Shown here: positions 1 to 64,000 of the stretch, one piece after another | Layout: every line of letters begins with the position of its first letter | How positions within the stretch are numbered: the stretch's first letter is position 1 | Origin: Deinococcales bacterium | GTDB lineage: Bacteria; Deinococcota; Deinococci; Deinococcales; JAAFIG01 | NCBI GenBank assembly: GCA_013298595.1 | Contig: JAAFIG010000002.1 | Span: 78,781-142,780, forward strand | DNA length: 64,000 nt | Reading direction: 5' to 3' | The notes under the pieces: generated by a model | Seen by the model: the letters and a program-made list of their open reading frames with translations, nothing else | Databases searched by the model: none | Told to the model about the DNA's origin: nothing | Translations under genes and position numbers: made by a program

Positions 1-2
1 AT

Positions 3-134
3 TGCGTGTTATTTGAATCTGACAACATCAAATGCTGGGGTTTAAATACTGCTGGTCAACTTGGGTATGGCAATACCAAAAACATTGGTGATAACGAAAC
101 GCCGTCGAGTGTTGGTATCGTACCACTGTTCTAA
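3..134 (+). CDS. RCC1-repeat protein, C-terminal fragment (gene begins upstream of window)
   Basis: Frame 3 reads [43 protein letters not shown]. About 80% DNA identity to the 3' end of the 402..2255 gene (2122-2255). Confidence 0.8.
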
Positions 135-201
135 AATCTATTCTCTCGAGCTTATCAAACCATTCTTGCTCGAGAATATTTTTAATCACTTGAACTACTC
201 C

Positions 202-235
202 CCCTCGAGCCTTCAATCTCGAGGGCTTTCTTTTG
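202..235 (+). terminator. Rho-independent terminator built from two CTCGAG copies
   Basis: CCCTCGAG (202-209), loop CCTTCAAT, CTCGAGGG (218-225), then CTTTCTTTTG. Lies directly after the stop of the partial RCC1 gene. Confidence 0.7.
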
Positions 236-401
236 AACTACTCGAGGTCATATTCAAGCTTCAACCATGATGATTGCCGAAAGAGCAGCCGATTTTATTT
301 TAACAGGGCAGTAAATACGTTTCCTAAACACTGTATTTAGAAATGTAACAGCAACGTTACTGGGTCTCGAGTAGGGTGCTCGAGGAACAACGGAGGTACT
401 T

Positions 402-3353: not shown

Positions 3354-3382
3354 AAAACCCCTCGAGTGAGGGGCTTGTTTTG
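3354..3382 (-). terminator. Bidirectional stem-loop terminator downstream of the peroxidase gene
   Basis: AAAA CCCCTC GAGT GAGGGG CTTGTTTTG. A 6-bp GC stem with a U-run on either strand, 16 nt after the stop at 3398. Confidence 0.65.
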
Positions 3383-13469: not shown

Positions 13470-13543
13470 AATATATACCACTTCGCAAAACTATTTCACT
13501 TAAAACTCGAATCAAGTCTATTAAACCTGACGGAGCGTTGAGT

Positions 13544-14239
13544 ATGAAAATCCGCATATCATACCGAGATATCCATGAGCAATATCATACTGAATTACCC
13601 CTCGAGCAATTACCAGTAATTGAACAACTACGATGGATACGACAAGAATGGTCACACAGTAAGCAAAACCACACCCCGTTAATGTTTTATTTCTCGAGCT
13701 TAAAACGATTAGTCTACTGTGAAAGCTATTTAGAAGCACAAACACTGCTGGATCTCGATTTTCGAGGTGAAACAAATTGTATCGTTGAACAACCATTTAT
13801 CTTACATTACAACAAGAAATTTCATATCCCCGATTATGTTCTACGGCAAGGTTTTACAACCATATTGATCAATGTTAAACCAAAAAAATTTCTTGAAACT
13901 CCAGAGAATATTACTGATTTTGCATTGGCATCTGAAGCAGCGCGGCAATTGGGCTGGATGTACCAAACTGTATCAGAATGCAATCCACAATATCTCGAAA
14001 ATATCAATTGGTTAGGTTCATTTAAGCACAGACCGTTTCAAGTTGAAACTTATGAAGTTGAGATTCTGAAGTATCTGAACCAATCATCAACGCTGCTCGA
14101 GTTGCTTAAACATTTCAAAAACGATTTCATCGTAAAACCAATAGTTTTCTATTTACTGTGGCATCGGCGTATTCAAACCAGTTTAGATCAGCGATTCTCA
14201 TTGCAAATGCCGTTATGGAAATCAACGGAGTATTCATGA
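13544..14239 (+). CDS. tnsA: TnsA-like endonuclease
   Basis: GGAG RBS. Restriction-endonuclease-like motif series CESYLE ... HIPDYVL ... ILINVKP (compare Tn7 TnsA E63/D114/Q130-x-K132). First gene of the tns operon. Its stop overlaps the tnsB ATG (ATGA). Confidence 0.75.
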   Translation: MKIRISYRDIHEQYHTELPLEQLPVIEQLRWIRQEWSHSKQNHTPLMFYFSSLKRLVYCESYLEAQTLLDLDFRGETNCIVEQPFILHYNKKFHIPDYVLRQGFTTILINVKPKKFLETPENITDFALASEAARQLGWMYQTVSECNPQYLENINWLGSFKHRPFQVETYEVEILKYLNQSSTLLELLKHFKNDFIVKPIVFYLLWHRRIQTSLDQRFSLQMPLWKSTEYS

Positions 14240-16314
14240 ATAAGTGGAACTTAGAGATTAACAATCTATATTTATGGTGTGATGAACACGTCAAACTAAT
14301 GCGATTTGTCAATCAACAAGTAATCCTCGAACGTGAAAATGGTCAAGTCATAACTATGAAGACTTCTGAATTCGTCAGTAAATATCCTATACCAGTCAAT
14401 GCTGATCCCTCCTTGATCATACAGCCAACGCCATCAATTTTTGACAATATCTCTAAATCAGCTCTTAAACAAGTTGACGTATTACAAGCTCACCTCGAGA
14501 TTGCAATTCACGGTATCGAACCAATGAATGAAAGTGAAACATGCTACGATGCAGAGTTAACCACGTTAACGTGTCGGATGAAAAAAAAGGCAGAAGAACT
14601 GAAAATGGATTTAAGCTCTTTCTGGCGAAAGAAAAAAAAGTATGAGCGATTTGGGCGATATGGTTTAATAGATCGTCGTTCATTACCGCTAGCACGCAGT
14701 AAACGCAATGATTCAGACCCAGTAGTCTTAACAATTGAAAAAGTACTGAAACAAACTATTGGTGCTTCTGATGTAACGAATATAATTCTATATAGAAAAA
14801 TCAAGAAACTATTGATACAAGACTATGGTGATACAGTCTCATTGCCATCGGTTGCGACGCTAAACAGATTATTAGCAGAAATAAGGCATCGATTAGGGAT
14901 ATATGGTAATGCTAATCAGCGTCAAAAATCTGCGCTAACACCTAAAAAACTATTTGGTTCTTTTCGTTCTACACACCCAGGGCAACTGGTAATGTTCGAT
15001 AGTACAAAACTTGATATGTTTGCACTCGACCCAATGAATAACGATTGGATTCAAGTTGCTTTGACTATTGCCTTTGATTTTTATTCTCGTTCAATTATTG
15101 GCTGGCGGTTCACACCTGTAGATACTAAAGGAGTAGATGCAGCTTTAGTTTTGTTTGATGTATTACATCCAAAAATTGCAATGCCAGATTGGGCAGATAT
15201 TGCTCATTGGAATTATTTTGGAGTACCAAGTGATATTCGCATTATTGAATACACCAATGATGATTCAAGCATACAGATTGCAGCTGTGCCATTTGTACAA
15301 CCAGATACAGTACTAATCGATCATGGCAAGGTTTTTATCTCGCATACATTTCAAGATGTTTGCACAAGACTTGGTATTCATATTCAACGAGCGCGTATCC
15401 GTCGTCCAACGGATAAATCGCCAGTAGAGAATGTATTTAAGCATATATCTCAGGATTTTTGTCAGCGATTGCCTGGATATAAAGGGCGCAGTATTGCTAC
15501 TAGAGGCATAGACATTGAAAAGAAAGCTTTTTATTACATTGAAGAAATCGATACGCTTTTTGCTGAATGGGTTGCGACTAAGTGGCAAAATCACATACCA
15601 AGATCGTTGCATTATCCTGCATCAGGAGCCGTTGAAGCTGATGTAACCCCTAATGATGCTTATACATTAGGTTTAACCCAAACTGGTTTTATACCGATAC
15701 CAAATCTGGTTTACTTCGATTGTCTTGAGACCGAATACCGTATTGTTAGTGAAAGTGGAATTACCATTCAATACCTTGAGTATGACAGTATTGAACTCGA
15801 GCCATTTCGTAATTATCCATCCGAGATTAGATCAGGCATTCATAAAGGAGATTATAGGATCAAAGCTGACCCACGAGACCGTAGTCAAATTTTTTTCTTC
15901 GATGAAATCCGCAAAACATGGATCACTATTCCGTGGCGTGGAAAACAGCATTTTTCACATCCATTTAGCGATCTAACACTTGCTTTTGCAAAAGCAACAG
16001 CCATTGAACATTTACATGGAAAAAAACCAACTAATGACGAAATTCGTTTTGCTTTGGAGGAAATGTATTCGCGTTGGGAGGCGAAAGAGTTTAGAACTCG
16101 CCGAGAGCGTCGTGTTGCTGCTCGAGATAAAATCCTAACCCAGCAAGCCCAAAAAGATCGTCTGCAAAAAAGTAAATCTACAGCATTAAATACTATTCCA
16201 GCAGCTGAGTTGAATCAATCAAATCAACCAATGATTCCAGAAGATATTAACGGTATTTTCAAGCGTTTTGACCAAATTAAAAGCTTGTATCAGGAGGATG
16301 ATGATGAGTTCTAA
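14236..16314 (+). CDS. tnsB: TnsB-like DDE transposase
   Basis: rve-type DDE triad context (LVMFDSTKLD, TVLIDHGKVF, DKSPVENVFKH). About 690 aa, with a Mu/Tn7-type architecture and an acidic C-terminal tail (YQEDDDEF). Confidence 0.85.
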   Translation: MNKWNLEINNLYLWCDEHVKLMRFVNQQVILERENGQVITMKTSEFVSKYPIPVNADPSLIIQPTPSIFDNISKSALKQVDVLQAHLEIAIHGIEPMNESETCYDAELTTLTCRMKKKAEELKMDLSSFWRKKKKYERFGRYGLIDRRSLPLARSKRNDSDPVVLTIEKVLKQTIGASDVTNIILYRKIKKLLIQDYGDTVSLPSVATLNRLLAEIRHRLGIYGNANQRQKSALTPKKLFGSFRSTHPGQLVMFDSTKLDMFALDPMNNDWIQVALTIAFDFYSRSIIGWRFTPVDTKGVDAALVLFDVLHPKIAMPDWADIAHWNYFGVPSDIRIIEYTNDDSSIQIAAVPFVQPDTVLIDHGKVFISHTFQDVCTRLGIHIQRARIRRPTDKSPVENVFKHISQDFCQRLPGYKGRSIATRGIDIEKKAFYYIEEIDTLFAEWVATKWQNHIPRSLHYPASGAVEADVTPNDAYTLGLTQTGFIPIPNLVYFDCLETEYRIVSESGITIQYLEYDSIELEPFRNYPSEIRSGIHKGDYRIKADPRDRSQIFFFDEIRKTWITIPWRGKQHFSHPFSDLTLAFAKATAIEHLHGKKPTNDEIRFALEEMYSRWEAKEFRTRRERRVAARDKILTQQAQKDRLQKSKSTALNTIPAAELNQSNQPMIPEDINGIFKRFDQIKSLYQEDDDEF

Positions 16315-17464
16315 ACCTAACTTGGAAGGTTTTGGCAACAATGAAACTGAAATGTATTTAGAAGAAGCTCCTATTTCGGAAATCAACAATTTTGATGAAT
16401 GGCTTCATTTTGTTTACGAACCAATATCAATTCGTCCCGATGTACCTACGCCCATAGAGTTTGCCGAAATGAGTCAAAAACAGAAAAAAAATTCGTGTAC
16501 ATTGCGTTTTCAGCATATTGCACGATTTCAACCGATTTCTACGACATCACGGAATAAAATCATTGATACCTTACTGCAGAGACTTCATGTGAACCGTATT
16601 GGAGGTCGTGGTGCTCGAGGAAGCGCTGTATTAACGGGCTACCCTTACATTGGAAAAACAACAATAGCTGTGGATATTGGCAGACGCTATGATCTTGATA
16701 TGCGGAAACTTCTCAAAAAGAGAACAGGTCAAGAACTTTTTATTCCAGAAACAAATGATCGCTTTATCCCTGTAATTTATGTGTGTTTAAGCAGCGAAGA
16801 TGTCTCCAACCTGAAAGCGTTGTATGCAACTTTTGCTCGATTCTTAGGTATACCAAAATATGAAAAAAAGACAACCAAACAACTCGAAGATGCTGTTGTT
16901 AAATGGGCGAAAGCTTGTCAAACAAGTTTTATCATCGTAGACGAAATTCATTATATTGATATTCGTTCGCGTGGTGTACGAAAAACCAATAATGCTATTA
17001 AAACACTGATGAATCGAATTCCTGCCACATTTTTATTCGCTGGGATTGAGTGTGAAAACACAGGAATCTTTTTTGACCATGACAGTGATCAAAAACGTAA
17101 AGCTGACCCAAGATTAGCGCAATTAAATCATCGCTGCTTAAAACTCGAACTAAAACCGTTTCAAAGTCTTTATGGTAATTATCAAGAAGGTATCAAACTT
17201 ATCAATACAATTGACCAAGAAATCGTACTAGTGAATCATCAAACAGGCGATTTGGTTCAACTAGCACCTTATATTCTAGCTAGAACAAATGGTCATATTG
17301 GAAGTATTCGGGATTTTATTTCACTAGGGTGTTATAAGGCTTTAAAAGAGAAAACCGAACGTCTCACCAAAGAGATATTAGAAGAAATTCAGCTTGATAA
17401 CGCGGCTGAAACAGCTTATCAAAATTATTTGGCAAGCAATCCACCCGCCCTCGAGACATACTAA
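16298..17464 (+). CDS. tnsC: TnsC/TniB-like AAA+ ATPase
   Basis: AGGAGG RBS inside the tnsB 3' end. Walker A GYPYIGKTT and Walker B FIIVDEIHY. Confidence 0.85.
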   Translation: MMMSSKPNLEGFGNNETEMYLEEAPISEINNFDEWLHFVYEPISIRPDVPTPIEFAEMSQKQKKNSCTLRFQHIARFQPISTTSRNKIIDTLLQRLHVNRIGGRGARGSAVLTGYPYIGKTTIAVDIGRRYDLDMRKLLKKRTGQELFIPETNDRFIPVIYVCLSSEDVSNLKALYATFARFLGIPKYEKKTTKQLEDAVVKWAKACQTSFIIVDEIHYIDIRSRGVRKTNNAIKTLMNRIPATFLFAGIECENTGIFFDHDSDQKRKADPRLAQLNHRCLKLELKPFQSLYGNYQEGIKLINTIDQEIVLVNHQTGDLVQLAPYILARTNGHIGSIRDFISLGCYKALKEKTERLTKEILEEIQLDNAAETAYQNYLASNPPALETY

Positions 17465-17477
17465 GCCTACGAGTCTT

Positions 17478-18626
17478 ATGAATAATCAACATCATCCACT
17501 CAACCGCCAATTTCCAAAGCGTGCCAATCTTAAAGCTGGTAATGCGTTGATTCCCCAATTGATCGAACTGGCTCGAGATTTGGAAATTACAACAGAAGAC
17601 TTATCAGCATTTCTCGAGGTCAGATTTGGGTTGGTACAAACAGCATTTGATCGTTTGCCATTCTTGACAACTCGAGAAATGGAGCAACTAGCACATGAGT
17701 TCGGCGTTTCAGTGCAAACGATAGAAGAAACCACCGCAGCCTATTTCTCGAGCAGAATTGGTACATCTCAGGATTCTGAACTACAGGAGCTTTTAGTTCC
17801 CTTTACCAAACGTCTTAAAGTATGCCCAAAGTGCCTACAAGAAAAACAAAACTACCAACTATCTTGGCAAGTTTCGTGGTCTTTTGTCTGTACTCGACAT
17901 CACGTTTTGCTCCAAGATATTTGTCCACACTGTGAGTATCCAATCGCTTCTAAACGTCGCACAACAGGCATTCCTGTTGAACATTTCCGCTGCGGTAATC
18001 ACATTGTCAACCAAAGTGTTTGCCATGAACGACTGGATCAACTTCCTCGAGTCTCTGTGGCAAACTACCCCGCAATTCTGAAAGCCCAAAATATTCTTGA
18101 AGCTGTTATCAATGGTAAATCGGTTTTGATATTTAACCAAACGGTTGTTCCGAAAGTGTTCTTGCAGAATTGTATTGCACTTCTTAAAATTCTTTGGGGA
18201 TTTATTGTGCCAGAACAGTTAGCCTCGGCTCCAATCAAATGCACAGGTGCATACCATCAATTTACCCGCGCTCGAGAAAAATATTTTCAATACCTCGAGC
18301 AGGAAAATCCGCTCGAGGACTCACCTGCTGCTATTTCTAGGCTTTGGGGAACACTTGATTTGATGACTGGCACAATGCCTTTGGTTTTAGAGATTCTTGC
18401 TTTATCCTCGAGACAAGCTATGGTGAATAGACTGATTGCCCTGATACAACAAAGCTGTTATCAAAGACCCCAATACCCACTTTGGATTTTGCAACACTTT
18501 GAACGACAAGCCATTGAAAATCACCATTGGATGTACACAATTAAGGAGTTGCAAAATTGGCTTAGAAGGACGTACTTTTTAAGAAAGGAGGTAGTGGCGC
18601 ATGTACCAAACCCTTATCCACTTTAA
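17478..18626 (+). CDS. tniQ: TniQ-family target-selection protein
   Basis: TniQ zinc-ribbon pattern CPKCLQEK...VCTRHHVLLQDICPHCEYPI. At 382 aa it is small-TniQ sized, like Cascade-associated TniQ. Its 3' end overlaps cas6 by 26 nt. Confidence 0.8.
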   Translation: MNNQHHPLNRQFPKRANLKAGNALIPQLIELARDLEITTEDLSAFLEVRFGLVQTAFDRLPFLTTREMEQLAHEFGVSVQTIEETTAAYFSSRIGTSQDSELQELLVPFTKRLKVCPKCLQEKQNYQLSWQVSWSFVCTRHHVLLQDICPHCEYPIASKRRTTGIPVEHFRCGNHIVNQSVCHERLDQLPRVSVANYPAILKAQNILEAVINGKSVLIFNQTVVPKVFLQNCIALLKILWGFIVPEQLASAPIKCTGAYHQFTRAREKYFQYLEQENPLEDSPAAISRLWGTLDLMTGTMPLVLEILALSSRQAMVNRLIALIQQSCYQRPQYPLWILQHFERQAIENHHWMYTIKELQNWLRRTYFLRKEVVAHVPNPYPL

Positions 18627-19173
18627 TCCTTCCTCTCCTCATGCTCAACGATTGCTAGACCAACCTTACCGAATCCACTACATGCTCGAGCATATTAATA
18701 CAAGTAGAACGCGAATATTATGGCGTTTAAGCGAAGATCGATTGCTAGTTAGGCATATTAACCCTCTTGACTGGACTGAACTTGATAAAACGCATCCAAG
18801 CCTTGGAGATAGAAGTCATACACAGGTGAACTTAGATTTGCCTTTGGGAACAATTCACCTGTTCAACTTGTTCGCGTTTATTTGTAAGCCAGATGACAAC
18901 GGAAAATGGAAAGTACAACAACCCAAACAGTATATTGATTGGCTTATTAAGCGTTCCAAACACATTGGTTTTGAATTACGTGAGATCCAAATCAACAAAG
19001 CCCCTGATCACTTTGTCCGAATGAACAGCGCTCAAATTAGAGCGCAGCCAATGAAGGTATCTGGAATTTTACAAATTACAGATACAACTGCCTTAATACA
19101 TAGTTTGGAAAGTGGAATAGGAAGGATGCGTGCTTATGGTTGTGGAATGTTAATATTGCAACCAATTGGATAA
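18601..19173 (+). CDS. cas6: Cas6e (CasE)-like crRNA endoribonuclease
   Basis: N-terminus MYQTLIHF...PYRIHYML (CasE has MYLSKV...LYQLHQGLW). C-terminus SGILQITDTTALIHSLESGIGRMRAYGCGMLILQP, against E. coli CasE EGVLTINDAPALIDLVQQGIGPAKSMGCGLLSLAP. Confidence 0.85.
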   Translation: MYQTLIHFNPSSPHAQRLLDQPYRIHYMLEHINTSRTRILWRLSEDRLLVRHINPLDWTELDKTHPSLGDRSHTQVNLDLPLGTIHLFNLFAFICKPDDNGKWKVQQPKQYIDWLIKRSKHIGFELREIQINKAPDHFVRMNSAQIRAQPMKVSGILQITDTTALIHSLESGIGRMRAYGCGMLILQPIG

Positions 19174-19193
19174 ATACTTAGAAACTTTATAAT
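19166..19193 (+). promoter_or_regulatory. Sigma70-type promoter for the CRISPR array
   Basis: TTGGAT (19166-19171), a 16-nt spacer, then TATAAT (19188-19193), about 25 nt before repeat 1. It overlaps the cas6 stop. Confidence 0.5.
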
Positions 19194-19218
19194 AGTGAAG
19201 TTTTGTCTGTTTCAAGCC

Positions 19219-19600: not shown

Positions 19601-19673
19601 GCACAAACACGAGTTCAAGTTTCATTGGGTACTTTTCTTTTCGTGAGAATCACTCTCTTCTAAGGTCTACAAC

Positions 19674-44120: not shown

Positions 44121-44155
44121 CCAAGGCTCGAGATTAGCGCAAACTCGAGCCTTGG
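44121..44155 (-). promoter_or_regulatory. Intercistronic 12-bp perfect stem-loop
   Basis: CCAAGGCTCGAG, loop attagcgcaaa, CTCGAGCCTTGG, between the SBP and permease genes. Confidence 0.7.
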
Positions 44156-44171
44156 TACAGCGGAGGAGGAG

Positions 44172-44198
44172 GCGTTAAGAGTTAAGTACTCTTAACGC
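44172..44198 (-). promoter_or_regulatory. Intercistronic 10-bp perfect stem-loop
   Basis: GCGTTAAGAG, loop ttaagta, CTCTTAACGC, 15 nt after the SBP stop. No U-run on the minus strand, so it more likely stabilises mRNA than terminates it. Confidence 0.65.
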
Positions 44199-44212
44199 AA
44201 AGGTGTTTTGTT

Positions 44213-45472: not shown

Positions 45473-45511
45473 GGTTTTCCTCCTCAGGAATTGAATGATG
45501 GCTTAGTGCTT

Positions 45512-45525
45512 GAAACCGCTTGCAA
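45512..45525. promoter_or_regulatory. LacI-family operator
   Basis: TGAAACCGCTTGCA fits the TGnAAnCGnTTnCA consensus exactly. It lies between the LacI gene and the SBP start. Confidence 0.6.
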
Positions 45526-45562
45526 AATCAGCTTGAAATCCTCCTTTTACTTGTCCAACAAA

Positions 45563-46570
45563 TTACGAATGTCTTAATCGAGTGGTTGACTCACGAACCA
45601 CTAAATGAGGGGTAAAAATCAAAGATGGTAGTTTTCGGTGCTCGAGTAGCGACAATACCATTTGAGCTGCGGCATTGCCCATTTCCTGTCCAGGTTGACG
45701 AACAGTTGTCAGTGGCGGAGTTGAATAACTCGAGCCGAATAAATCATCAAAACCAATAATGCTGATGTCTTCTGGAACTCGAATGCCTCGGCGGTATAGG
45801 GCTAAACGCGCACCTGATGCCATTTGGTCGTTGGCTGAAAAAACAGCGGTAATACTGGTATCTCGAGTTAGTAATTGTTCCATAGCAAGTAAGCCACTGT
45901 GTTCTTGGAAATTGCCTGATACAACTAAATTAGGGTCAAAAGGGATATCGTTAGCAGCTAAGACTTGTTGGTAACCGTGTAAGCGTCCTGTCGAGTCACG
46001 ATGTGACGCTGGTCCTGCGATATGGGCAATTCGATGGTGTCCTAAGTCAATCAGGTGTTGCACTCCTGCGGCAGCACCTTGTATTTGGTCAATATGAATA
46101 CATTGATTTTCTAAGCCTTGAATGAAACGTCCAACGGCTACCAGAGGAATTTGTTGAGATAACTGCAATAAATATTGATCGTCTAAGTTGCCACCTAAAA
46201 TAATTAGGCTATCTACGCGTCTAGCGGTCAAAATTTCAATTGCCTCGAGTTCTTTATCCTGTCGCCAATGCCCAGAAATAAACATTGGATGATACACACT
46301 ATCGGCAAACCCTTGTTCGATACCTGCTAGTGTTTCGGCATAAAACGGACTCGAGATGGCTTGGGTGACAACACCAACGGTCATTGAACGTCCTTTGGCA
46401 AGGGCTTGCGCCATCACATTTGGACGATAGCCTAGCGTTGCAATGGCTGTTTCGACTTGCTTACGTTTCTCAGGGCTGACGACTGCCGTGCCATTCAGAA
46501 TCCTCGAGACAGTACTCGGGGAGACTTGGGCGATTTTGGCAACATCATTGAGTGTTCGTGTGCGAGACAC
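45563..46570 (-). CDS. LacI-family transcriptional regulator
   Basis: GTG start with a GGAGG RBS. HTH TLNDVAKIAQVSPSTVSRILNG, with a periplasmic-binding-protein-like core. Confidence 0.85.
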   Translation of the reverse strand: MSRTRTLNDVAKIAQVSPSTVSRILNGTAVVSPEKRKQVETAIATLGYRPNVMAQALAKGRSMTVGVVTQAISSPFYAETLAGIEQGFADSVYHPMFISGHWRQDKELEAIEILTARRVDSLIILGGNLDDQYLLQLSQQIPLVAVGRFIQGLENQCIHIDQIQGAAAGVQHLIDLGHHRIAHIAGPASHRDSTGRLHGYQQVLAANDIPFDPNLVVSGNFQEHSGLLAMEQLLTRDTSITAVFSANDQMASGARLALYRRGIRVPEDISIIGFDDLFGSSYSTPPLTTVRQPGQEMGNAAAQMVLSLLEHRKLPSLIFTPHLVVRESTTRLRHS

Positions 46571-46966
46571 TGGCTTTTCCTCCGTTTGGATGGTTTGATT
46601 GTGCGAAGTGTAACAGTATCTGAAAGCGCTGTCAAGAGGTTTGGTCACAAGAACAAAAATCAAGAGCAAATCAGTTTGGTGGTATCACAAAGCGCAGCTC
46701 TACTGAAGATAAATGTCTAAAAAAGTAGCTTAGAAAGTCTATTTCTCGAGTATATAACCTAAAATATATAGTGTTTTAGGCAGAGATATTTTTGTGAGCC
46801 AGATTTCTTTTTTGGATAATATCGATGGGTAACTGACAAGTGCTTTTGACTAAGTACGTACTTCAATTTATGAAAGGGCTTTCAGGCAAAATAAGTAAGT
46901 TATTTTTAACAATGCAACAGCGCACACCACAATTCTGGTAGTACCATTTTTGTAAACTGGTCAGTT

Positions 46967-52748: not shown

Positions 52749-52994
52749 TTTTAAATTGTAATGTGTTTGGCTAATTTTGCATGAGGAGTCTCTTGACTTC
52801 TTGAGAAAACCCAGTACACTAGGTCTATGCTCCAACAGGGGCTTGTATAATTTAGTTCTCATTCTCCGCAGGTTCTCGCCTGCGGTCTTGTTGCGTCATC
52901 CATGATCGGCACTGGCAAACAAGGTTTCGGCTTTTCGGCGATTCGTTTTTCGCATAGCCAGACCACGTTCAAGTCTGGCAGACAGGGAGCAAGG

Positions 52995-55900
52995 ATGAAA
53001 GAAATCATCCGTTTCGGCACCATCAAGGAAATTCTCGAGCTTCCACGATTAGTGGAATTGCAAATTGGTTCGTTTAACCATTTTTTGCAAAAAGGTGTTC
53101 TGGCTAAAGACCGCGAGGACTTTGGTTTGCAAGGCGCATTCAGAGAGATCTTTCCCATAGACGAATCCGAGAAAAACCGCACAGGTGGTTTGGTCTTGGA
53201 TTTTCTCGAGTATGAATTGGGCGACCCGCCCTATAGTCCAGACGAAAGCCGCGATAAGGATTTAACTTATCAAGCGCCAATGTTTGCCAAATTACAACTC
53301 ATTCACCGCGATACTGGTCTGATTAAAGAAGACAAAGTCTTCCTTGGCGACCTACCCCTAATGACCGATGAAGGTAGCTTTATCGTCAATGGTGCAGACC
53401 GCGTGATTGTTTCACAAATTCACCGTTCACCTGGTGTGTACTTCACCAAATCGTACCGTGGTTCAAAACCACTTTACGCTGGTTCAATCATTCCAATGCC
53501 TAAACGCGGACCGTGGATTGAACTCGAGTTTGCCACTTCCGATGTGCTCGAAATGAAAGTCAATAAGCGCAAATTCCCAGTTACTATGTTGTTGCGGGTA
53601 CTGGGTTATGACGATCAATCGATGCGAAAAATCTTCAAAGGTGCCGATGCTGTTTTAGAAGCCACCTTTAACGAAGATAAAACCGCTGGTATGAGCGGCG
53701 AAGAAGCCTTGTTGCGTTTGTTCACTATTTTGCGTCCTGGTGACCCACCTAAGCGTGACAAAGCGGTTTCGTACTTGTATGGCTTACTCGCCGACCCAAA
53801 GCGTTACGATTTAGGTGATGCTGGTCGTTTCAAAGTCAACAGCAAACTTGGGATTAAAAACCCAGAAAAAACCTTGCTGATTTTTGAAGACGGACAATTT
53901 AAAGATGCTGGTTTAATCGCCACCATTCAGTACTTGTTAACCCTACAAAGCGGCGCAGAAGGCTACTCCGAAGACGACATCGACCACTTGGGTAATCGCC
54001 GTGTTCGTACCGTTGGCGAGTTGCTCGGCGACCAATTCCGTGTTGGCTTAGGGCGTATGGCAAGAGGCGTGCGTGAACGTATGTTACTTGGCAACCCAGA
54101 CGCTGCCACCCCAAGCAAATTGGTCAACAACCGCCCAATTGTGGCTGCTATGCGTGAATTCTTCGGACGTTCGCAACTCAGCCAATTCAAAGACCAAATT
54201 AATCCACTGGCAGAACTTCGTCACAAACGCCGTATTTCGGCGCTTGGACCGGGTGGTTTAACCCGTGAACGCGCAGGTTTCGATGTCCGCGACGTGCACC
54301 GTACCCATTACGGACGCATCTGCCCAATCGAAACACCAGAAGGCGCAAACATTGGTCTGATCTCGAGCTTGGCTTCATTTGCTAAGGTCAATCCACTTGG
54401 TTTTATCGAAGCACCCTACCGTAAAGTGGTCAAAGGCAAGCTGACCGATACCATCGAGTACATGGCAGCCCATACCGAAGACAAATACATTATCGCTCAA
54501 GCCAGTACCGTGGTAATTGATGGCATGTTATCGGGTCAAGTGGTAGCCCGTAAAAAAGGTGACCCTGTGATTGTGGCAGGCGAAGAATGCGATTACATGG
54601 ATGTGACCCCGAAACAAATTGTTTCGATCAGCACCAGTTTAATTCCATTCCTCGAGCACGACGACGCAAACCGTGCCCTCATGGGTAGCAATATGCAATC
54701 CCAAGCAGTGCCTTTGGTTCGTGCCGAACCACCGATGGTGGGTACGGGTATCGAAGAGCGTATTGTGCTTGATTCTGGTACCAATTTAATTTGCGATGTG
54801 GATGGCGAAGTTGTTGAAGTAGACGGTGCGAAAATTGTTGTCAAATACGGCAAAAATAACATCCGCGAATTCAAGCTAACCCGCTTCCAACGCAGCAATT
54901 ACGGCACCAACCACGATCAAAAACCAATTGTCAAACTAGGCGATACTGTCAAAGCTGGACAAGTCCTTGCCGATGGTCCTGCTTCACAAAATGGTCGTTT
55001 GGCACTGGGTCAGAATATCACCATTGCGATTATGCCTTTTGATGGTTACAACTACGAAGACGCGATTGTGCTGTCTGAAAACCTGATTCGCAAGGATTTC
55101 TACACCAGCATTCACATCGAAAAGCACGAAAAAGAGGCTCGAGATACCAAGCTCGGACCTGAGAAAATCACCAGAGATATCCCAGGTTTGTCCGAAGCTG
55201 CATTGCGCGACCTCGACGAGGACGGCATTGTCCGTGTTGGAGCCGAAGTCAAACAAGGTGATATCTTGGTAGGGCACACCAGCTTCAAGGGCGAAACCGA
55301 ACCAACCCCAGAAGAACGCTTGTTACGTTCGATTTTCGGCGAAAAAGCCAGAGAAGTCAAAGACACTTCGGCTCGAGTTCCATCGGGTGAAGGTGGCATT
55401 GTTATTCGTACAGTCCGCTTTAAGCGTGGCGAAGAAGGCGTGGACTTAAAACCTGGTGTGCGCGAAATGGTGCGTATTTACGTGGCGCAACGCCGCAAGT
55501 TGCAAGTCGGCGATAAGTTAGCCAATCGTCACGGTAACAAAGGTGTCGTGGCTCGTATCCAAGCCCCAGAAGATATGCCGTACTTACCAGATGGTACCCC
55601 AGTAGACCTTGTTTTCAATCCGCTTGGTGTGCCTAGCCGTATGAATCTTGGTCAAATCTTTGAGACGCACCTTGGTGAAGTTGCCCGTCGCATGGGAGTC
55701 AGTTTTGTTACTCCAGTTTTTGATAGTGCTACCGAAGCCCAAATTAAAGAACGTCTGATTTCCACTGCTAAAGAAGCCGTCGAAGCCCATGAAAAACTTG
55801 GTTATGGCATGGATAACCGTGAAGCCGAAGTGATTACTCGTGCCCAAAAACTCGGTGTGATTTCTATGGAAAACACCCTCGAGAAAGCTCGAGAAAACCT

Positions 55901-56363
55901 TTGGGGAACGGGTAAGACCACCTTGTTTGATGGTCGTACTGGCGAAGCCATCGAAGGTCCTGTGGTGGTTGGCACAATGTATGTCTTGAAGCTTTACCAC
56001 ATGGTTGAAGACAAGATGCACGCCCGTAGCACTGGACCCTACAGCTTGATTACTCAACAACCCTTGGGTGGTAAAGCCCAAAACGGTGGTCAACGCTTCG
56101 GTGAAATGGAAGTTTGGGCACTCGAGGCTTACGGCGCAGCTCATACTTTGCAAGAAATTTTGACGGTCAAATCTGACGATATCGGTGGACGCGACGATGC
56201 GTACCAAGCCATTGTCAAAGGCGAAGAAGTGCAGGATGCCAGCATTCCAGAGTCGTTCAAAGTGCTTGTCAAAGAACTTCACAGCCTCGGTTTAGATGTA
56301 CAAGTGCTTGACCAAAACGATAAAACCGTGGACATCTTTGAAGGAATGATGCCTAGAAGATAA
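52995..56363 (+). CDS. rpoB: DNA-directed RNA polymerase subunit beta
   Basis: Start at MKEIIRFG (GGGAG RBS). Universal motifs RHKRRISALGPGGL, NMQSQAVPL, LANRHGNKGV and GGQRFGEMEVWALEAYGAA. Confidence 0.97.
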   Translation: MKEIIRFGTIKEILELPRLVELQIGSFNHFLQKGVLAKDREDFGLQGAFREIFPIDESEKNRTGGLVLDFLEYELGDPPYSPDESRDKDLTYQAPMFAKLQLIHRDTGLIKEDKVFLGDLPLMTDEGSFIVNGADRVIVSQIHRSPGVYFTKSYRGSKPLYAGSIIPMPKRGPWIELEFATSDVLEMKVNKRKFPVTMLLRVLGYDDQSMRKIFKGADAVLEATFNEDKTAGMSGEEALLRLFTILRPGDPPKRDKAVSYLYGLLADPKRYDLGDAGRFKVNSKLGIKNPEKTLLIFEDGQFKDAGLIATIQYLLTLQSGAEGYSEDDIDHLGNRRVRTVGELLGDQFRVGLGRMARGVRERMLLGNPDAATPSKLVNNRPIVAAMREFFGRSQLSQFKDQINPLAELRHKRRISALGPGGLTRERAGFDVRDVHRTHYGRICPIETPEGANIGLISSLASFAKVNPLGFIEAPYRKVVKGKLTDTIEYMAAHTEDKYIIAQASTVVIDGMLSGQVVARKKGDPVIVAGEECDYMDVTPKQIVSISTSLIPFLEHDDANRALMGSNMQSQAVPLVRAEPPMVGTGIEERIVLDSGTNLICDVDGEVVEVDGAKIVVKYGKNNIREFKLTRFQRSNYGTNHDQKPIVKLGDTVKAGQVLADGPASQNGRLALGQNITIAIMPFDGYNYEDAIVLSENLIRKDFYTSIHIEKHEKEARDTKLGPEKITRDIPGLSEAALRDLDEDGIVRVGAEVKQGDILVGHTSFKGETEPTPEERLLRSIFGEKAREVKDTSARVPSGEGGIVIRTVRFKRGEEGVDLKPGVREMVRIYVAQRRKLQVGDKLANRHGNKGVVARIQAPEDMPYLPDGTPVDLVFNPLGVPSRMNLGQIFETHLGEVARRMGVSFVTPVFDSATEAQIKERLISTAKEAVEAHEKLGYGMDNREAEVITRAQKLGVISMENTLEKARENLWGTGKTTLFDGRTGEAIEGPVVVGTMYVLKLYHMVEDKMHARSTGPYSLITQQPLGGKAQNGGQRFGEMEVWALEAYGAAHTLQEILTVKSDDIGGRDDAYQAIVKGEEVQDASIPESFKVLVKELHSLGLDVQVLDQNDKTVDIFEGMMPRR

Positions 56364-56438: not shown

Positions 56439-59400
56439 ATGCGCGACTTTAGCAAAGTAAAAATTCAACTTGCCAGCCCCGAGAAAATCCGTTCTTGGAG
56501 TTATGGTGAAGTCGAAAAACCAGAAACCATTAATTACCGTACACTCAAACCAGAACGTGATGGTTTGTTTGACGAGCGGATTTTCGGACCTGAAAAGGAT
56601 TACGAATGCGCTTGCGGTAAGTACAAACGTCAACGTTATGAAGGTAAAGTCTGTGAGCGTTGCGGTGTCGAAGTGACTAAACGCATCGTGCGTCGTTACC
56701 GCATGGGACATATCGAACTTGCTACGGCAGCTGCCCATATTTGGTATGTCAAAGATATTCCAAGTAAAATTGGTACCTTACTCGACCTCAGCGCTGGGCA
56801 ACTCGAGCAAGTCTTGTACTTTGGTAAGTTCATTGTGACCGATCCACAAGGTGCAATTAAAGATGGTCGCCCACTGAAAAAAGGCGAGTTGCTTTCCGAC
56901 GAAGAGTACCGCGAACTACGCATTGGTAAGCAAGAAACGTATTCTTTACAAGTTGGAACCCATGCCGAAGTGCGTGACGGAGAATACGTCACTCGAGGAC
57001 AAAAACTCGGTGGCAATGTCGTCTCGAAAATGGATGGTGTTGCCCAGTATCGTTTCCCACGCAAAGCAACCCTCGAGTACGCTCGAGAAGGCGAAGCCAA
57101 ATTCACACTGCCAAAAGGTGTGACCATTGAACTCGAAGCTTTCCGAGCTGGCGAAGAAATTTGTGATGGCATTGAAAATCACAGTATTCTAGCCACTCGA
57201 GATGGTGTGATCAGCATTACCGAACTTGGCGAAGGCTTTGGTCGTGGTGGTGTGATTATCGAAGTCCAAGACCCTGAAGATGCCCAAGTGCTCGAGCGTG
57301 TCTTTGTGCCAATGGGCTTTGAAGTGCTGGTTGGCGATGGCGAAAGTGTCGAATCTGATACCGAACTCGCCCAAGCCAATGGCGATTTAATTCGTATGCC
57401 CCGTGGTGCAAATGCCAGTGCTGTCAGCAGCAAAAAACGTGGTTCTAATCTCGATGTTTCCTTGACACTGCACTGGAATCTCGAGAAAACCCTCGAGATT
57501 AACCCAACCATGCACGTCTTGGTTGGCGATGGCGCAGAGTTTAGTGCTGGTGACCGTTTAATTGGTGCCATAGACCCATCCCAAGAAATTATGGCAGAAG
57601 CTGATGGTACATTAACACTGCAAGAACCAGCCAGCATCATTGTTTCTCGAGCAAAATTGTACAAATACGAAGATGAACCGATTGTGGTCAATGGCGACCG
57701 TGTTGAACCAGGCGATGACTTGGCAGACAAAGGCAATCTCAAATCCGAAATTCATGGTCGTATCGAAATTGATTTGGTACGTCGTCAAGTGCGCGTTGTT
57801 GAAGCTTACGACTTTGAAGCTCGCATGGGTGCAGAAGCCATCAAGCAATTGCTAGAAGGTATTGTTCTCGAGACCCTCGAAGCCGAATTAAACGAAGAAA
57901 TGACCAACCCAAGTCGCCACAAACGAGCCAAAGCCCGTAAGCGTCTCGAGGTGGCTCGTGCTTTCCGTAAGAGCGGGAATCGCCCAGAGTGGATGATTCT
58001 TGACAGCGTACCTGTGATGCCGCCAGATTTGCGTCCGATGGTGCAAGTGGATGGTGGGCGTTTTGCGACTTCAGATTTGAACGATTTGTACCGCCGCTTG
58101 ATTAACCGCAACAACCGTTTGAAGAAGTTAATGACCACGGGCGCACCAGAAATGATTGTTCGCAACGAAAAACGCATGTTGCAAGAAGCTGTAGATGCGC
58201 TGATTGACAATGGTCGTCGTGGTACTCCAGTCACCCACCCAGGTTCAGATCGAGCATTACGTAGCCTCACCGATTTACTTGGTGGTAAACAGGGTCGTTT
58301 CCGTCAGAACTTGCTTGGTAAACGCGTAGATTACTCTGGTCGTTCGGTGATTGTGGTTGGTCCACAATTGCGTTTACATCAATGCGGATTGCCAAAACGT
58401 ATGGCACTCGAGTTATTCAAACCATTTTTGTTTAAAGTGCTCGAGGAAAAAGGTGTTGTTACCAACATCAAGCAAGCCCGTAAGCTGCTCGAGCGTTACC
58501 GCGACACCCGCGACGAAATTTGGGATGCCTTAGAAGAAGTCATCCAAGACAAAGTGGTGCTGTTAAACCGCGCACCGACCTTGCACCGTCTTGGTATTCA
58601 AGCTTTCACCCCAGTTTTGGTTGAAGGTCAGGCTATTCAATTGCACCCACTGGTTTGCGAAGCCTTCAACGCCGATTTCGATGGCGACCAAATGGCAATT
58701 CACGTACCACTCTCGCCATACGCCCAAGCAGAAGCTCGAGTACAAATGCTTTCGGCACATAATTTGCTTTCGCCTGCTAACGGCGAACCAAACGTCAAAC
58801 CAGCTAAAGACATTATTTTAGGTATTTACACCCTGACCCAACCACGCCCAGGCAAAGTTGGTATGGGCAGTAAATTCAAAGATCAAGAAGAAGTCTTAAA
58901 AGCCCTCGAGAAGAACAAAGTTGATCTGAACTCTCGCATTGTTGTTGGTGGCAGAGAAACCAGCGCAGGCGCAATTCGCCATATCTTTGGTAATCTCGAT
59001 GAAGCCTTACATGCAGTACAACGCGGCGAAATTGACACCCAAGACAGTGTTTCAATCCGCTTAGATTTAGTCAGTGGCTCAGAGATTATTGAAACCACCA
59101 CAGGACGGGCATTGTTCCGTCGTATGGTCAACGAAACCATCACCGAAGATGGCAGTATCCTATCTCGAGAATACGTCAACCTGACCACCACCTACGGCAA
59201 GAACCCTTTGACCGAAATGGTGATTGATATCTTCAAAACCATGGGTGTGGAAAAAACTGCTGCGATTCTTGACGCACTCAAATCCAATGGTTTCAAACTC
59301 GCCAGTACCAGCGGCGTAACTGTCGGTATTGACGATGCCATGATTCCACCCGAGAAAACCGAATTGCTGCGAAAAGCCGACCTTGAACTCGAGCAAATCC

Positions 59401-61028
59401 GCGAAGATTCAGACCTTGGTTTGGTCACCGAAGAAGAACGTTACCGCCAAGTGATTACCTTGTGGACAAACACCACCGAGGATGTCACCAACGCTGCCTA
59501 CGCCAACTTTGAAAAGCATTACCCACTCAACCCGTTCTACGTCATGAGCCAATCAGGTGCCCGTGGTAACAAACAACAACTCCGCCAACTCATGGGTATG
59601 CGCGGATTGATGCAAAAACCAAACGGCGACACCATCGAACTCCCTGTACGCGCCAACTTCCGCGAAGGTCTGAACGTGCTCGAGTACTTCACCAGCACCC
59701 ACGGTGCACGTAAAGGTGGAGCTGACACGGCGCTTCGTACCGCAGACTCGGGTTACTTAACCCGTAAGCTTCACGATGTTGCCCACGAAATTGTCATCCG
59801 TGAACCAGACTGTGGTACATCCGATTACTTAACAATACCGCTGCTCGAGGATGGTAAACAACGCAAAGCTGGCGATATCGAAATGGGCTTATATGGTCGT
59901 CACCTCGGCGCTGACCTCGAGATTGGTGGCAAAACCCTCGAAGCTGGCTTGTTACTGAACACCGACGAAGTCAAATTTATCCTCAAACACCGCGAGCAAC
60001 TGGCAGGTGTACCAGTTCGTAGTCCAATTACCTGCCGTACTCGAGCTGGCGCTTGCCAAAAGTGCTACGGTTTTGACCTTTCACAAGCCAAACTTGTTTC
60101 CAAAGGCGAAGCTGTTGGTGTGATTGCCGCGCAATCCATCGGAGAACCAGGCACACAGCTAACCATGCGTACCTTCCACACAGGTGGTGTAGCAGGTGCC
60201 CAAGACATCACCCTTGGTTTGCCTCGCGTTGTTGAACTTTTCGAGGCTCGTAAGCCAAAAATCAAAGCCACACTCTCGGAAATTGATGGTATCGTCTCCA
60301 TCGCTGATGAAGACGGCAGCGATAAGATCATCCTGACTGTGACTGACAACGACCTTGCCAAGAAATATAAAGTCGAACGCAATACCCGTTTGTTAGTCCG
60401 TGAAGGCGACAAAGTCGAAGCTGGTCAAGTCATGACACGCGGTGCAATCAACCCAGAAGACTTACTCGACTCCAAAGGTGTTGAAGCAGCCCAACGTTAC
60501 CTCGTAGATGGTATCCAACAAGTGTACCGTCAACAAGGCGTGAAAATTCACGACAAGCACATCGAATTAATTGTCAAACAAATGTTCAAATACGTCGAAA
60601 TCCTCGAGGATACAGGCGATAGCGAATTCCTCGAAGGACAAGTACTCGAGAAATTCGATGTTGAACGCGAAAACGAACGACTCGAAGAAGCAGGCAAAAA
60701 TCCTGCTTCATGGAAACCAAAACTCATGGGTATCACCAAGAGCGCTTTATCCACCAAGTCGTGGTTATCAGCAGCCAGTTTCCAACACACCACTCACGTA
60801 CTCACCGAAGCCAGCGTCAGCGGCAAAGTAGACGAACTGATTGGCTTAAAAGAAAACGTGATTCTAGGCAAACTGATCCCAGCGGGAACAGGCTTAGCCG
60901 AAGTCAAAGAAATTCAAGTCATGGACGACCGCCTCCGCGAGAAAGTACTCGAGGGCAACGACCGAGCAACCCGCCTTGCCCAGAGCGGCAATGCAAATAT
61001 GCCACAAGCACCAGCTGGCGACGATTAA
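56439..61028 (+). CDS. rpoC: DNA-directed RNA polymerase subunit beta' (1529 aa, with ~300-aa lineage-specific insertion)
   Basis: Zn motif CACGKY...CERCGV; catalytic [12 protein letters not shown]; trigger-loop and bridge-helix motifs. A non-conserved block lies at about residues 162-460. Confidence 0.97.
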
Positions 61029-62001: not shown

Positions 62002-62011
62002 AGAATAGAAT

Positions 62012-63259
62012 TTGCTCGAGATGAAGAGATTAAGAACCCGCAAGTCACAGCTCGGGGGGTTTGGTTTGACTCGAGATGACAATGAAAGTACAGTTCAAGA
62101 TATGGAAAAGCACCTAGAAAAAAAGAATAAGAATAAGAATGAGAATGAGTTTAACTGGAAGGGATGCTTGGTCATCTTTTTCGTGAGCTTGCTTGTACTG
62201 CCTTTTTTTGCAGTTCGTAGCCAAGACTCACTCCCACAAGTCAATATCGAAACCGTGGCGGCAAGTGACCATTCGTTGGTGGTCCGTTCAGATGGTGCTT
62301 TGTGGGCTTTTGGAGCAAATGAATCGGGGCAATTGGGCATGGGTACAACGGAAAACCAACTGAAACCTGTTCAAGTCATGACTGATGTCTCGAGTGTCGC
62401 GGCTGGTGGTCACTCGTTGGTTTTGAAGTCTGATGATTCTTTATGGACGTTTGGTCGCAATAATGTATGGCAACTTGGCGATGCAACCAAGATCAATAGG
62501 AGTAAACCAATACAAATCATGGGCGATGTCATCAATATTGCTACGGGTGCTGCTCACTCTTTTGCGATTAAAAAAGATCGTTCTTTATGGGCGTTTGGAT
62601 TCAATAATCAAGGGCAGCTTGGAGATGGTACAACTAACAGTCGGGGAAAGCCTGTCAAAATCATGGAAAATGTAGCAGAAGTTAGGGCAGGTGTTTTTAT
62701 CTCCCTTGTCTTAAAACTGGATGGTACACTTTGGTCTTTTGGTCAAGGAGGGTATTTGGGTGATGGTACTCTTAAGCAACGCCAAAAACCCGTAAAAGTG
62801 ATGGAAAATATCATCAAGATTGGAACAGGTGATTTTCATTCTTTGGCGTTAGGCAAAGACAAAACGCTTTGGGGATTTGGCTTGAATTACTATGGACAAC
62901 TTGGTGATGGTACAGATATTCAGGGGTGGATGAAACCAATTAGAATCATGTCCGATGTTTCATATGTCAGTGCTGGTTCTTATCATTCCTTAGTTATAAA
63001 AACGGATGGCACGCTTTGGGCATTTGGTAGAAATGATTTTGGTCAGCTTGGAAATGGGACAAACATCAATCAAAGAAAGCCAGTCAAAGTTATGGATAAT
63101 GTTGCTTTTGGAGCAGCAGGTAATATGTACTCTTTGGTAACAAAAACAGATGGTTCGTTGTGGGCATTTGGACAAAACAAGTTTGGACAACTTGGAGATG
63201 GGACAACAATAAACAGAAATCAACCTGTTCAAATTTTGACAGATGTACGAATCCCCTAA
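62012..63259 (+). CDS. Membrane-anchored RCC1-repeat protein
   Basis: N-terminal basic region plus a TM segment (CLVIFFVSLLVLPFFAV), then 7 RCC1 repeats (HSLV.K.DG.LW.FG.N..GQLGDGT). The exact start is uncertain. Confidence 0.8.
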   Translation: MLEMKRLRTRKSQLGGFGLTRDDNESTVQDMEKHLEKKNKNKNENEFNWKGCLVIFFVSLLVLPFFAVRSQDSLPQVNIETVAASDHSLVVRSDGALWAFGANESGQLGMGTTENQLKPVQVMTDVSSVAAGGHSLVLKSDDSLWTFGRNNVWQLGDATKINRSKPIQIMGDVINIATGAAHSFAIKKDRSLWAFGFNNQGQLGDGTTNSRGKPVKIMENVAEVRAGVFISLVLKLDGTLWSFGQGGYLGDGTLKQRQKPVKVMENIIKIGTGDFHSLALGKDKTLWGFGLNYYGQLGDGTDIQGWMKPIRIMSDVSYVSAGSYHSLVIKTDGTLWAFGRNDFGQLGNGTNINQRKPVKVMDNVAFGAAGNMYSLVTKTDGSLWAFGQNKFGQLGDGTTINRNQPVQILTDVRIP

Positions 63260-63404
63260 AGTCTTGCAAGGGGTGTTTCTTTTTCTCGAGAAACCTATTG
63301 TTTTCATGGCTCGAGAATCACTCTTCTGCTCTGTGCCATTCTTTCAGGCGCTACCTTCGCGCTTGGTCGGTAGGGCGCTTAGGCTCGAGCTTGTGCTGGT
63401 TGCG

Positions 63405-63827
63405 CTATGGCTCGAGGCTGATTGCTGCAACATTTTCGCCTAAGCGCATAAAATGCTTTAAATTCAGGGTGTATAACTTCTTCGCCCCAACTTTTAATGC
63501 ACTGGTTGCTATCAATGTGTCAAAAATTGTGCCACCTTGAATGCCTAAGTCAATTAACCGCTCCACACTGCTTTGATAATCGCTTGGCTCGAGAATAATT
63601 TGTTCAACACCTTTTAAGTTTCCATCCAGCATTTTCTTGACTTCTTTTGGCGGTATTAAATGCCGTCCTGTCAGTACCGAGTACAATTCTGCAATAGTAT
63701 GGGTGCTAATTGCGGCTCGAGATGCGGCTCGGCTTTCTGTAAAAACTTTTTTGCAACGCAGGTGTGCTTCGCGACACGGTAGCATTAAAGCAATCAGGAC
63801 ACTTGTGTCAAAAACATCTTTACTCAA
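63405..63827 (-). CDS. vapC: PIN-domain toxin (VapC-like)
   Basis: TTG start overlapping the upstream stop. VFDTSVLIAL ... IAELY ... FDTLIA gives PIN acidic residues in the canonical order. Confidence 0.7.
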   Translation of the reverse strand: MSKDVFDTSVLIALMLPCREAHLRCKKVFTESRAASRAAISTHTIAELYSVLTGRHLIPPKEVKKMLDGNLKGVEQIILEPSDYQSSVERLIDLGIQGGTIFDTLIATSALKVGAKKLYTLNLKHFMRLGENVAAISLEP

Positions 63828-64000
63828 GGTCGTCCATTCGGGTAGCTCGAGCAGTTACTATCATTTCTTCGATGGAATCTGGAATATCTGTGCCTGTCCA
63901 GACGTATATGCCATCTTGTTCGATTACTTCCCCGTCGCAGCGTGGACTGAGTACAAGTGAACCATCTTGGATTTGGATATCGAATTGACTTTGAGGCTCG
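63820..64000 (-). CDS. Putative antitoxin partner of VapC, partial (runs off window)
   Basis: Minus-strand frame reads ...DGSLVLSPRCDGEVIEQDGIYVWTGTDIPDSIEEMIVTARATRMDDLE*. Its stop overlaps the vapC start by 8 nt. Confidence 0.45.
   Translation of the reverse strand, partial: EPQSQFDIQIQDGSLVLSPRCDGEVIEQDGIYVWTGTDIPDSIEEMIVTARATRMDDLE

Follow-up and report, generated by a model that had tools for sequence, protein, structure and literature searches.

To our knowledge, highly iterated palindromes (HIPs) have been studied only in cyanobacteria, and the question of their function has stood open for three decades. In those organisms a short palindrome is classed as a HIP when it exceeds its compositional expectation by more than about 15-fold. 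HIP1, GCGATCGC, is listed at 300-2,700 copies per Mb, and the alternate cyanobacterial HIPs are GGCGCC, GCsGC, rCCGGy and TCGATCGA. A periodicity of 18-94 kb along the chromosome has been described for HIP1 (Xu et al. 2018), and Elhai reported that the deviations in its one-off variants are biased to the two outermost positions. With methylated HIP1, natural transformation rises by up to 100-fold, and a phylogenetic correlation has been described between the abundance of HIP1 and type IV secretion proteins, which its authors linked to DNA uptake. Here we analyze the hexamer CTCGAG in a 64,000-bp stretch of DNA from Deinococcales bacterium (assembly GCA_013298595.1, contig JAAFIG010000002.1, positions 78,781 to 142,780), referred to below as the window, for which an earlier reading of the sequence (the original prediction) had proposed a hyper-iterated palindrome analogous to HIP1. 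CTCGAG is a HIP variant outside the cyanobacteria, new in phylum, word, length, density and effect on proteins. Full-text literature searches turned up no account of iterated palindromes in Deinococcota; in them CTCGAG appeared only as a methylated motif (Halorubrum, hot-spring genomes and communities) and as a honey-bee motif.

Other short words are also known to accumulate in bacterial genomes. The DNA uptake sequences (DUS) of Neisseriaceae and uptake signal sequences (USS) of Pasteurellaceae are 9-12 bp long and non-palindromic, occur about once per kb, and have a known specific receptor. In E. coli, Dcm/Vsr very-short-patch repair raises the frequency of CCWGG, with a small effect and with depletion of the T-containing one-off. 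CTCGAG itself is the recognition site of XhoI and PaeR7I.

An exact tally gave 298 copies of CTCGAG in 64,000 bp (1 per 215 bp; 4.66/kb, or 4,656 copies per Mb) against a random-hexamer expectation of 15.6, so that the hand count of the original prediction (about 300, or about 1 per 215 bp, against about 16) was accurate, and its figures of 25 sites in rpoC, 10 in rpoB and 44 in the transposon region (13.5-25.9 kb) were exact. CTCGAG was by far the commonest hexamer in the window, the runners-up being overlaps of CTCGAG itself, and the second-ranked palindromic hexamer was enriched only 2.8-fold. Base composition (order 0) predicted 11.8 copies, giving an observed-to-expected ratio (O/E) of 25; dinucleotide shuffles or an order-1 Markov model predicted 6.4-6.5 (O/E 46), with a maximum of 12 over 100 shuffles, and a motif-masked background predicted 4.3 (O/E 69). 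The maximal-order Markov model proposed earlier as a check proved uninformative. At order 4 it predicted 243 copies (O/E 1.22), which we do not accept as a refutation because the null is circular for this word: its sub-words already carry the CTCGAG signal, the pentamers lying almost wholly within the hexamer (CTCGA, 298 of 342 occurrences; TCGAG, 298 of 345; the core TCGA, 298 of 485).

The composition of positions flanking the 298 sites was near background. Flanks which would extend the palindrome were not favored (62 of 298 sites vs 25% expected), and CCTCGAGG was rare (3 of 298 sites). The unit is therefore the bare 6-mer and not a mobile repeat. No conserved context of at least 20 bp around the core, as in repetitive extragenic palindromes or miniature inverted-repeat transposable elements, was found in the window, the sole repeated context being one duplicated gene segment. 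Local density ranged from 3 to 21 sites per 2 kb, and sites were uniformly placed along genes. Distances between sites were exponential (coefficient of variation 1.03; Kolmogorov-Smirnov p = 0.2), with many neighbors less than 40 bp apart, and no sign of even spacing or of interference between neighboring sites was seen in the window.

Gene calling returned 47 genes covering 93% of the window, and the codon null was obtained by shuffling synonymous codons within each gene. Coding sequence held 272 copies of CTCGAG compared with 24.3 +/- 4.2 after shuffling (11-fold). As had been predicted, all three codon phases were occupied, and each was enriched 9-20-fold (145 vs 13.6 in phase 0, 73 vs 8.0 in phase 1 and 54 vs 2.7 in phase 2). 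Intergenic DNA, where sites had likewise been predicted, held 28 copies in about 4.7 kb (6.0/kb, compared with 4.55/kb in coding sequence). Relative to neutral expectation the ln odds were 4.36 in phase 0, 3.51 in phase 1, 3.88 in phase 2 and 4.13 between genes. Since the bias is nearly equal whatever the reading frame, the force acts on the DNA word. Enrichment thus survived correction for both codon usage (11-fold) and dinucleotide usage (46-69-fold), the outcome on which the original prediction had staked itself.

Outside the motif, CTC accounted for 9% of Leu codons and GAG for 17% of Glu codons. Background codon use would accordingly spell 1.6% of Leu-Glu dipeptides as CTCGAG, whereas 145 of 258 (56%) were so spelled, and the motif also occupied 73 of 124 [PTAS]-Arg-[EGDAV] and 54 of 144 x-Ser-[SR] positions. 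The bias overrides a strong preference for AT-rich codons. The codon-shuffle and phase tests refute the view of CTCGAG as an ordinary by-product of codon or dipeptide usage, or as a relic from an ancestor of high GC content which preferred CTC-GAG for Leu-Glu, and we consider it very improbable. Such a pattern does occur in high-GC Trueperaceae and Calidithermus, whose sites are nearly all phase-0 Leu-Glu and exceed the codon shuffle only 1.2-2.5-fold; Calidithermus roseus (3.0/kb) was for this reason rejected as a second true case, showing only a phase-0 codon-pair bias of about 2-fold. In the window, however, enrichment is just as strong in phases 1 and 2 and between genes, occupancy is far from that predicted by CTC and GAG background, and many sites are novel by comparison with high-GC outgroups and needed amino-acid changes. 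The relic version is ruled out, as the phase 1, phase 2, intergenic and replacement-requiring sites are absent from the high-GC outgroups.

Conservation of sites was assessed against the closest relatives (third-position identity about 0.6). At conserved Leu-Glu positions the CTCGAG spelling was kept in 82.5% of comparisons, whereas retention was 18% where Leu-Glu was spelled otherwise and 41% for the spelling of degeneracy-matched control dipeptides. In the sugar-utilization cluster (Table 1), 42 of 69 sites (61%) were shared with the orthologous cluster of locus L201, compared with 18% of arbitrary hexamers. CTCGAG sites are thus conserved 2-4 times above matched controls, with the exception of the phase 1 and phase 2 sites of rpoC, which were not conserved above background. 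Gains and losses specific to lineages both occurred. Lost sites mostly differed from the motif by two or three changes, TTAGAA being typical (Hamming distances 1, 2 and 3 in the ratio 14:20:17), and positions therefore hold one of two states, the motif or AT-rich preferred codons.

The motif has also left an imprint on proteins. Among the window proteins, Leu-Glu was over-represented relative to within-protein shuffles (O/E 2.19, z = 14) while the reverse dipeptide Glu-Leu was not (0.87), and [PTAS]-Arg-[EGDAV] reached an O/E of 1.44 (z = 4.4). The number of Leu-Glu dipeptides in rpoC was 26-31 in the window and its closest relatives, 20-23 deeper in the clade and 11-21 (mostly 13-20) outside it, and Glu-Leu stayed near 14 in the compared genomes. 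The third-position identity of rpoB to its closest relatives was only 0.61. When rpoB and rpoC were compared with motif-free outgroups (L012, L013, L014 and L055), 21 of the 35 sites were found to sit where the outgroup amino acids cannot encode the motif. Clear cases of sites made by replacement were seen at alignment columns 171, 2743 and 3321 of rpoB and 636, 1077, 3477 and 4302 of rpoC. The bias therefore fixes amino-acid replacements at weakly constrained positions. The directional process or selection on this word which had been proposed earlier is borne out by the 2-4-fold conservation of sites, by these replacement-made sites in rpoB and rpoC and by the 2.2-fold excess of Leu-Glu.

By its rpoB sequence the window belongs to a Deinococcales lineage, uncultured and represented mostly by metagenome-assembled genomes (MAGs) from glacier streams, with a best match at 92% amino-acid identity; the element is thus HIP-like but not HIP1. 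The GC content of the window (44%) is low for Deinococcales. CTCGAG was the top hexamer in 14 of 14 clade relatives sampled (3.3-6.2/kb at 46-59% GC). Since the flanks of these loci lack synteny with the window, their regions count as independent. A second locus from the same MAG as L001, the orthologous sugar-utilization cluster, carried 5.85 sites/kb, and another region of the 5-Mb chromosome of L004 carried 4.64/kb at 61% GC. Over the whole clade, including the window and the second loci, density was 3.3-6.4 sites/kb across 44-61% GC, so that absolute density is roughly constant while GC varies. Enrichment thus extends beyond the window, as the original prediction supposed, and the even density over 47 unrelated window genes together with the second loci in two relatives supports a genome-wide spread in the source genome.

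Codon-corrected enrichment in rpoB and rpoC was 8-27-fold in the inner clade, 4-17-fold in the deeper branches and 6-15-fold in several low-GC Trueperaceae. The corresponding values were 1.2-2.5-fold, in phase 0 only, for high-GC Trueperaceae and Thermaceae and at most 1.1-fold for Deinococcus. In the rpoB tree, L015 and L075 (about 6/kb) grouped with L013 (0.3/kb) and with motif-free Deinococcus. A trait dependent on an accessory gene would be expected to come and go between neighbors in this way. In L012 (Deinococcus lacus NBRC 112440), no CTCGAG was found in 23.4 kb, with 5-6.5 expected and despite 10 Leu-Glu dipeptides in rpoB. This absence suggests avoidance in a relative of the enriched clade, perhaps through an active XhoI-type restriction system.

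Mobile DNA carried the motif as well. An integrated element in L201 (MAG JAYWGM01; positions 15147-21350, beside the sugar cluster), with genes for a phage-type integrase, a RepB-like primase and an HTH_17 protein, held CTCGAG at 5.5/kb, equal to host density, and was without GGCC. In the Tn7-like transposon genes of the window, 34% of Leu-Glu dipeptides were spelled CTCGAG compared with 59% elsewhere, which suggests a mobile element that is partly host-adapted. A scan of viral contigs for the motif returned mostly high-GC contigs, but a few bore the all-phase signature. L127 (IMGVR_UViG_3300005289_000104), L188, L093 and L187 (58-70% GC) showed enrichment in every phase as well as between genes; L127 is a bona fide phage fragment with portal and tape-measure genes, and an attempt to identify its host gave none. 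Taken together, these data show that a per-site, frame-independent and lineage-specific fixation bias acting at the DNA level keeps about 4.7 copies/kb, on resident mobile elements as well.

One-off variants were computed with the motif masked. The claim that they are frequent held for TTCGAG/CTCGAA, at 2.7-fold (2.73-fold) expectation, and for the other outer-position variants, at about 1.9-fold, but CTCGAC, named with them, was unremarkable at 8 observed vs 6.5 expected. Among inner one-offs, transversions were depleted (0.1-0.8-fold) and the transitions CTTGAG/CTCAAG stood at 1.32-fold, and TCGA outside the hexamer was enriched 1.38-fold. The bias to outer positions matches that of HIP1 and upholds the analogy drawn earlier. 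It also bears on a functionless ratchet in which mismatch or very-short-patch repair tied to a CTCGAG or TCGA methyltransferase would convert near-cognates to the motif as a neutral by-product. We rate this alternative as rather unlikely, although the outer one-offs and the excess of TCGA are as it would have them, the fixation bias is uniform over phases and intergenic DNA, mobile DNA is affected too, and the patchy distribution suits an accessory enzyme. The version put forward by Elhai for HIPs requires a methylated GC dinucleotide, which CTCGAG lacks, and predicts saturation near 1 site/kb with interference between neighbors, whereas we found 4.7/kb and random spacing. A Vsr-type process predicts depleted transition one-offs; those of CTCGAG were instead enriched, 2.7-fold at the outer and 1.3-fold at the inner positions, and the 69-fold enrichment of the word likewise differs from the small effect of Dcm/Vsr. 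No repair gene of this kind was found among the window genes or the fetched loci.

Other palindromes in the same window behaved quite differently. GGCC was nearly absent (1 vs about 179 expected) and CCGG was depleted (11 vs about 125). Seventeen palindromic hexamers were absent, among them TTCGAA (17-28 expected), ATGCAT (19-29), TGGCCA (22-34), GTCGAC, CGATCG and GAGCTC, and GTAC and AGTACT were mildly enriched. The window thus shows the classic avoidance of sites expected of type II restriction systems, and the effect on CTCGAG is opposite in sign and extreme. Loci of the inner sub-clade (among L001-L003, L005-L008, L073, L201 and L202) held 0-2 GGCC sites, and GGCC was normal in L004, L009, L011 and L015; since the loss is limited to the inner sub-clade, the avoidance is younger than, and independent of, CTCGAG enrichment.

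CTCGAG shows every HIP feature that could be tested here, namely over-representation, flankless dispersion, codon independence, conservation and outer one-offs, and we are all but certain that it is a real DNA-level phenomenon of HIP type. Like the cyanobacterial HIPs it is a short GC-rich palindrome found in genes and spacers, with unconserved flanks and an O/E in the tens to hundreds, in excess of codon usage, conserved above neutral, with outer one-offs, and with carrier lineages beside non-carriers (PMC4390886, PMC5861425). Unlike HIP1, it is found in Deinococcota, has a TCGA core rather than GATC or CGATCG, contains no GC dinucleotide, and is a hexamer present at 4,656 per Mb, above the range of HIP1. 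Unlike published HIPs, it leaves a measurable imprint on proteins (Leu-Glu 2.2-fold). With DUS and USS it shares hyper-abundance of a short word, occurrence in all frames, a preference for protein positions under weak constraint, a peptide imprint and inverted hairpin pairs. The accumulation of DUS and USS is explained by per-site drive, and they occur in naturally competent groups. CTCGAG differs from them in being a strict 6-bp palindrome, with no non-palindromic core of 9-12 bp, and in being about 5 times denser.

The source of the bias would be a lineage-specific system recognizing CTCGAG, probably linked to a methyltransferase as for cyanobacterial HIPs and gained or lost between neighbors. 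The reading we favor, with less than even confidence, is a molecular drive of the uptake or recombination type. Conspecific DNA carrying CTCGAG, probably methylated, would be taken up or recombined preferentially, and each site would then spread independently, as is thought to occur for uptake sequences. This reading fits best because sites are independent, lie in all frames, are placed where constraint is weak, leave a peptide imprint, form hairpin pairs and extend to mobile DNA. It agrees with the data on HIP1 and transformation, with the type IV secretion correlation and with competence in Deinococcus and Thermus, which is well known in both genera.

Several points weigh against uptake or recombination as the source. 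Pfam scans of the 47 window genes revealed no methyltransferase, nuclease, Vsr or competence gene, and the recognizing system is one that we infer entirely. A motif screen of about 200 fetched loci likewise found no relevant methyltransferase, nuclease, Vsr or competence gene, and homologues of M.TaqI were found only from Thermus, Anaerolineae and Armatimonadota. A 6-bp tag discriminates less than the longer, non-palindromic uptake sequences of 9-12 bp that are known, and Thermus takes up DNA without sequence preference. Selection and biased conversion are inseparable here, as both yield the same fixation bias, and the source genome is seen only within the 64-kb window.

Selection could instead act for a chromosome-wide, methylation-dependent housekeeping role, for example in timing replication, in segregation or in telling strands apart during mismatch repair, which would need a high density of sites in the manner of Dam and GATC. 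The conservation of sites above neutral, both in genes and in one intergenic hairpin, is in keeping with such a role, as is a density roughly constant over 44 to 61% GC. Nevertheless we consider it unlikely. A role in coverage predicts over-even spacing and little gain from sites tens of bp apart, whereas the spacing was exponential; the absence of the trait from close relatives such as L013 means that it is not essential; and amino-acid changes which add sites where density is already high are left unexplained.

We give still less credence to CTCGAG as the target of an abundant dimer-forming DNA-binding protein, of the nucleoid-associated kind or similar, with every copy contributing to fitness. 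A palindromic target with a strict 6-bp unit would suit such a protein, and independence of sites and random spacing fit additive contributions. Against this, the one-off pattern resembles that of methyltransferase-linked HIPs and no candidate protein is known. Nor are we aware of a nucleoid protein under which an exact hexamer becomes enriched 69-fold or coding sequence is remodeled.

A further proposal, which we put forward as a conjecture that may well prove wrong, is that CTCGAG is the tag of an undescribed methylation-linked system of self-recognition in Deinococcales, acting in uptake or recombination or in a new form of strand-discrimination repair, which arose independently of HIP1 and whose per-site drive rewrites proteins, RNA polymerase among them. 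Iterated palindromes would in that case be a recurrent phenomenon of bacteria in general, and close lineages that differ in the trait (L075 and L015 vs L013) would offer a comparison from which to find the causal gene. A separate case outside the cyanobacterial phylum, with a different word, a higher density, a GC range of 44-61% and non-carrier neighbors, amounts to a natural comparative experiment, in which a gene tracking the presence of the trait should reveal the mechanism. That drive on a DNA word can beat codon preference and alter the amino acids of core genes matters for models of sequence evolution, with implications for codon-based gene prediction and for phylogenetics in these lineages. 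For engineering, XhoI cloning sites would be useless in these lineages, and the motif may aid transformation.

Table 1. Features of the window that carry or bear on CTCGAG (coordinates are window positions)
Feature	Position	Strand	Remarks
CTCGAG bare hexamer, 298 dispersed copies	1..64000	.	counts, flank composition, spacing
Duplicated segment copies, 5 sites; local density peak	140..260; second copy 2259-2380	.	
Terminator-like hairpin CCCCTCGAGTGAGGGG, then T run on minus strand, one CTCGAG	3355..3380	-	judged from sequence context
Tn7-like CRISPR-associated transposon genes, 29 sites (3.2/kb)	13538..22573	+	
Sugar-utilization gene cluster	28068..46669	-	orthologous cluster in MAG JAYWGM01 (L201)
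Stem-loop from two CTCGAG copies (CCAAGGCTCGAG...CTCGAGCCTTGG)	44119..44157	-	intergenic, substrate-binding protein (SBP)/permease genes
rpoB, 10 sites	52902..56363	+	9/10 common to each closest relative
rpoC, 25 sites, 26 Leu-Glu	56439..61028	+	several sites made by amino-acid replacement

Since CTCGAG is palindromic, any two copies can pair. Stems extended by at least 2 extra base pairs were found at 11 of 63 close adjacent pairs, compared with about 3.9 expected, and the 12-bp stem between the SBP and permease genes (44127/44144) was conserved in L201 with a different loop. The three stems cited in the original prediction do exist and extended stems are modestly above chance, but hairpins involve a small minority of sites; they represent a minor use and not an explanation of CTCGAG abundance. 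A search of the window against Rfam gave no match.

With respect to the transposon (13538-25969), its genes encode TnsA-like, TnsB (rve), TnsC (TniB/AAA) and TniQ proteins, followed after TniQ by Cas6e-like, Cse1/Cas8e, Cas7 (CT1975/Cse4) and Cas5. No cas1, cas2 or cas3 was seen in this region. A degenerate array of 7 clustered regularly interspaced short palindromic repeats (CRISPR), with a period of about 61-62 nt, lies between cas6 and cas8 (19213-19602), a lone repeat-like sequence lies near the right end of the transposon (25950-25969), and palindromic inverted repeats are present at 25651-25794. The arrangement looks like a type I-E-like Cascade on a Tn7 backbone, an unusual subtype.

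Within the sugar-utilization cluster, a fusion of about 1,030 amino acids (28068-31154, minus strand) joins an ABC-transporter permease domain (BPD_transp_1) to an acyltransferase-3 domain, and the fusion is kept beside the cluster in two relatives (L201, positions 1-2150; L203, positions 1-2153). Just downstream of rpoC are genes for an XisH-family protein (61110-61529, plus strand) and a PIN-domain protein (63405-63827, minus strand). The XisH family is best known from cyanobacteria.

The density peak near the start of the window (Table 1) falls in a duplicated segment (1-260 vs 2122-2380) made up of the 3' end of an RCC1-type gene and the tail of a DUF1016 nuclease gene, with a third partial copy at 3180-3230. 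A special RNA or separate repeat at 145-260 and 2264-2380 was considered and rejected, as this is a duplicated gene segment. The window encodes four full RCC1-repeat (beta-propeller) paralogues, at 402-2255, 7153-8940, 9010-10560 and 62012-63259, and the 3' end of a fifth at 1-145.

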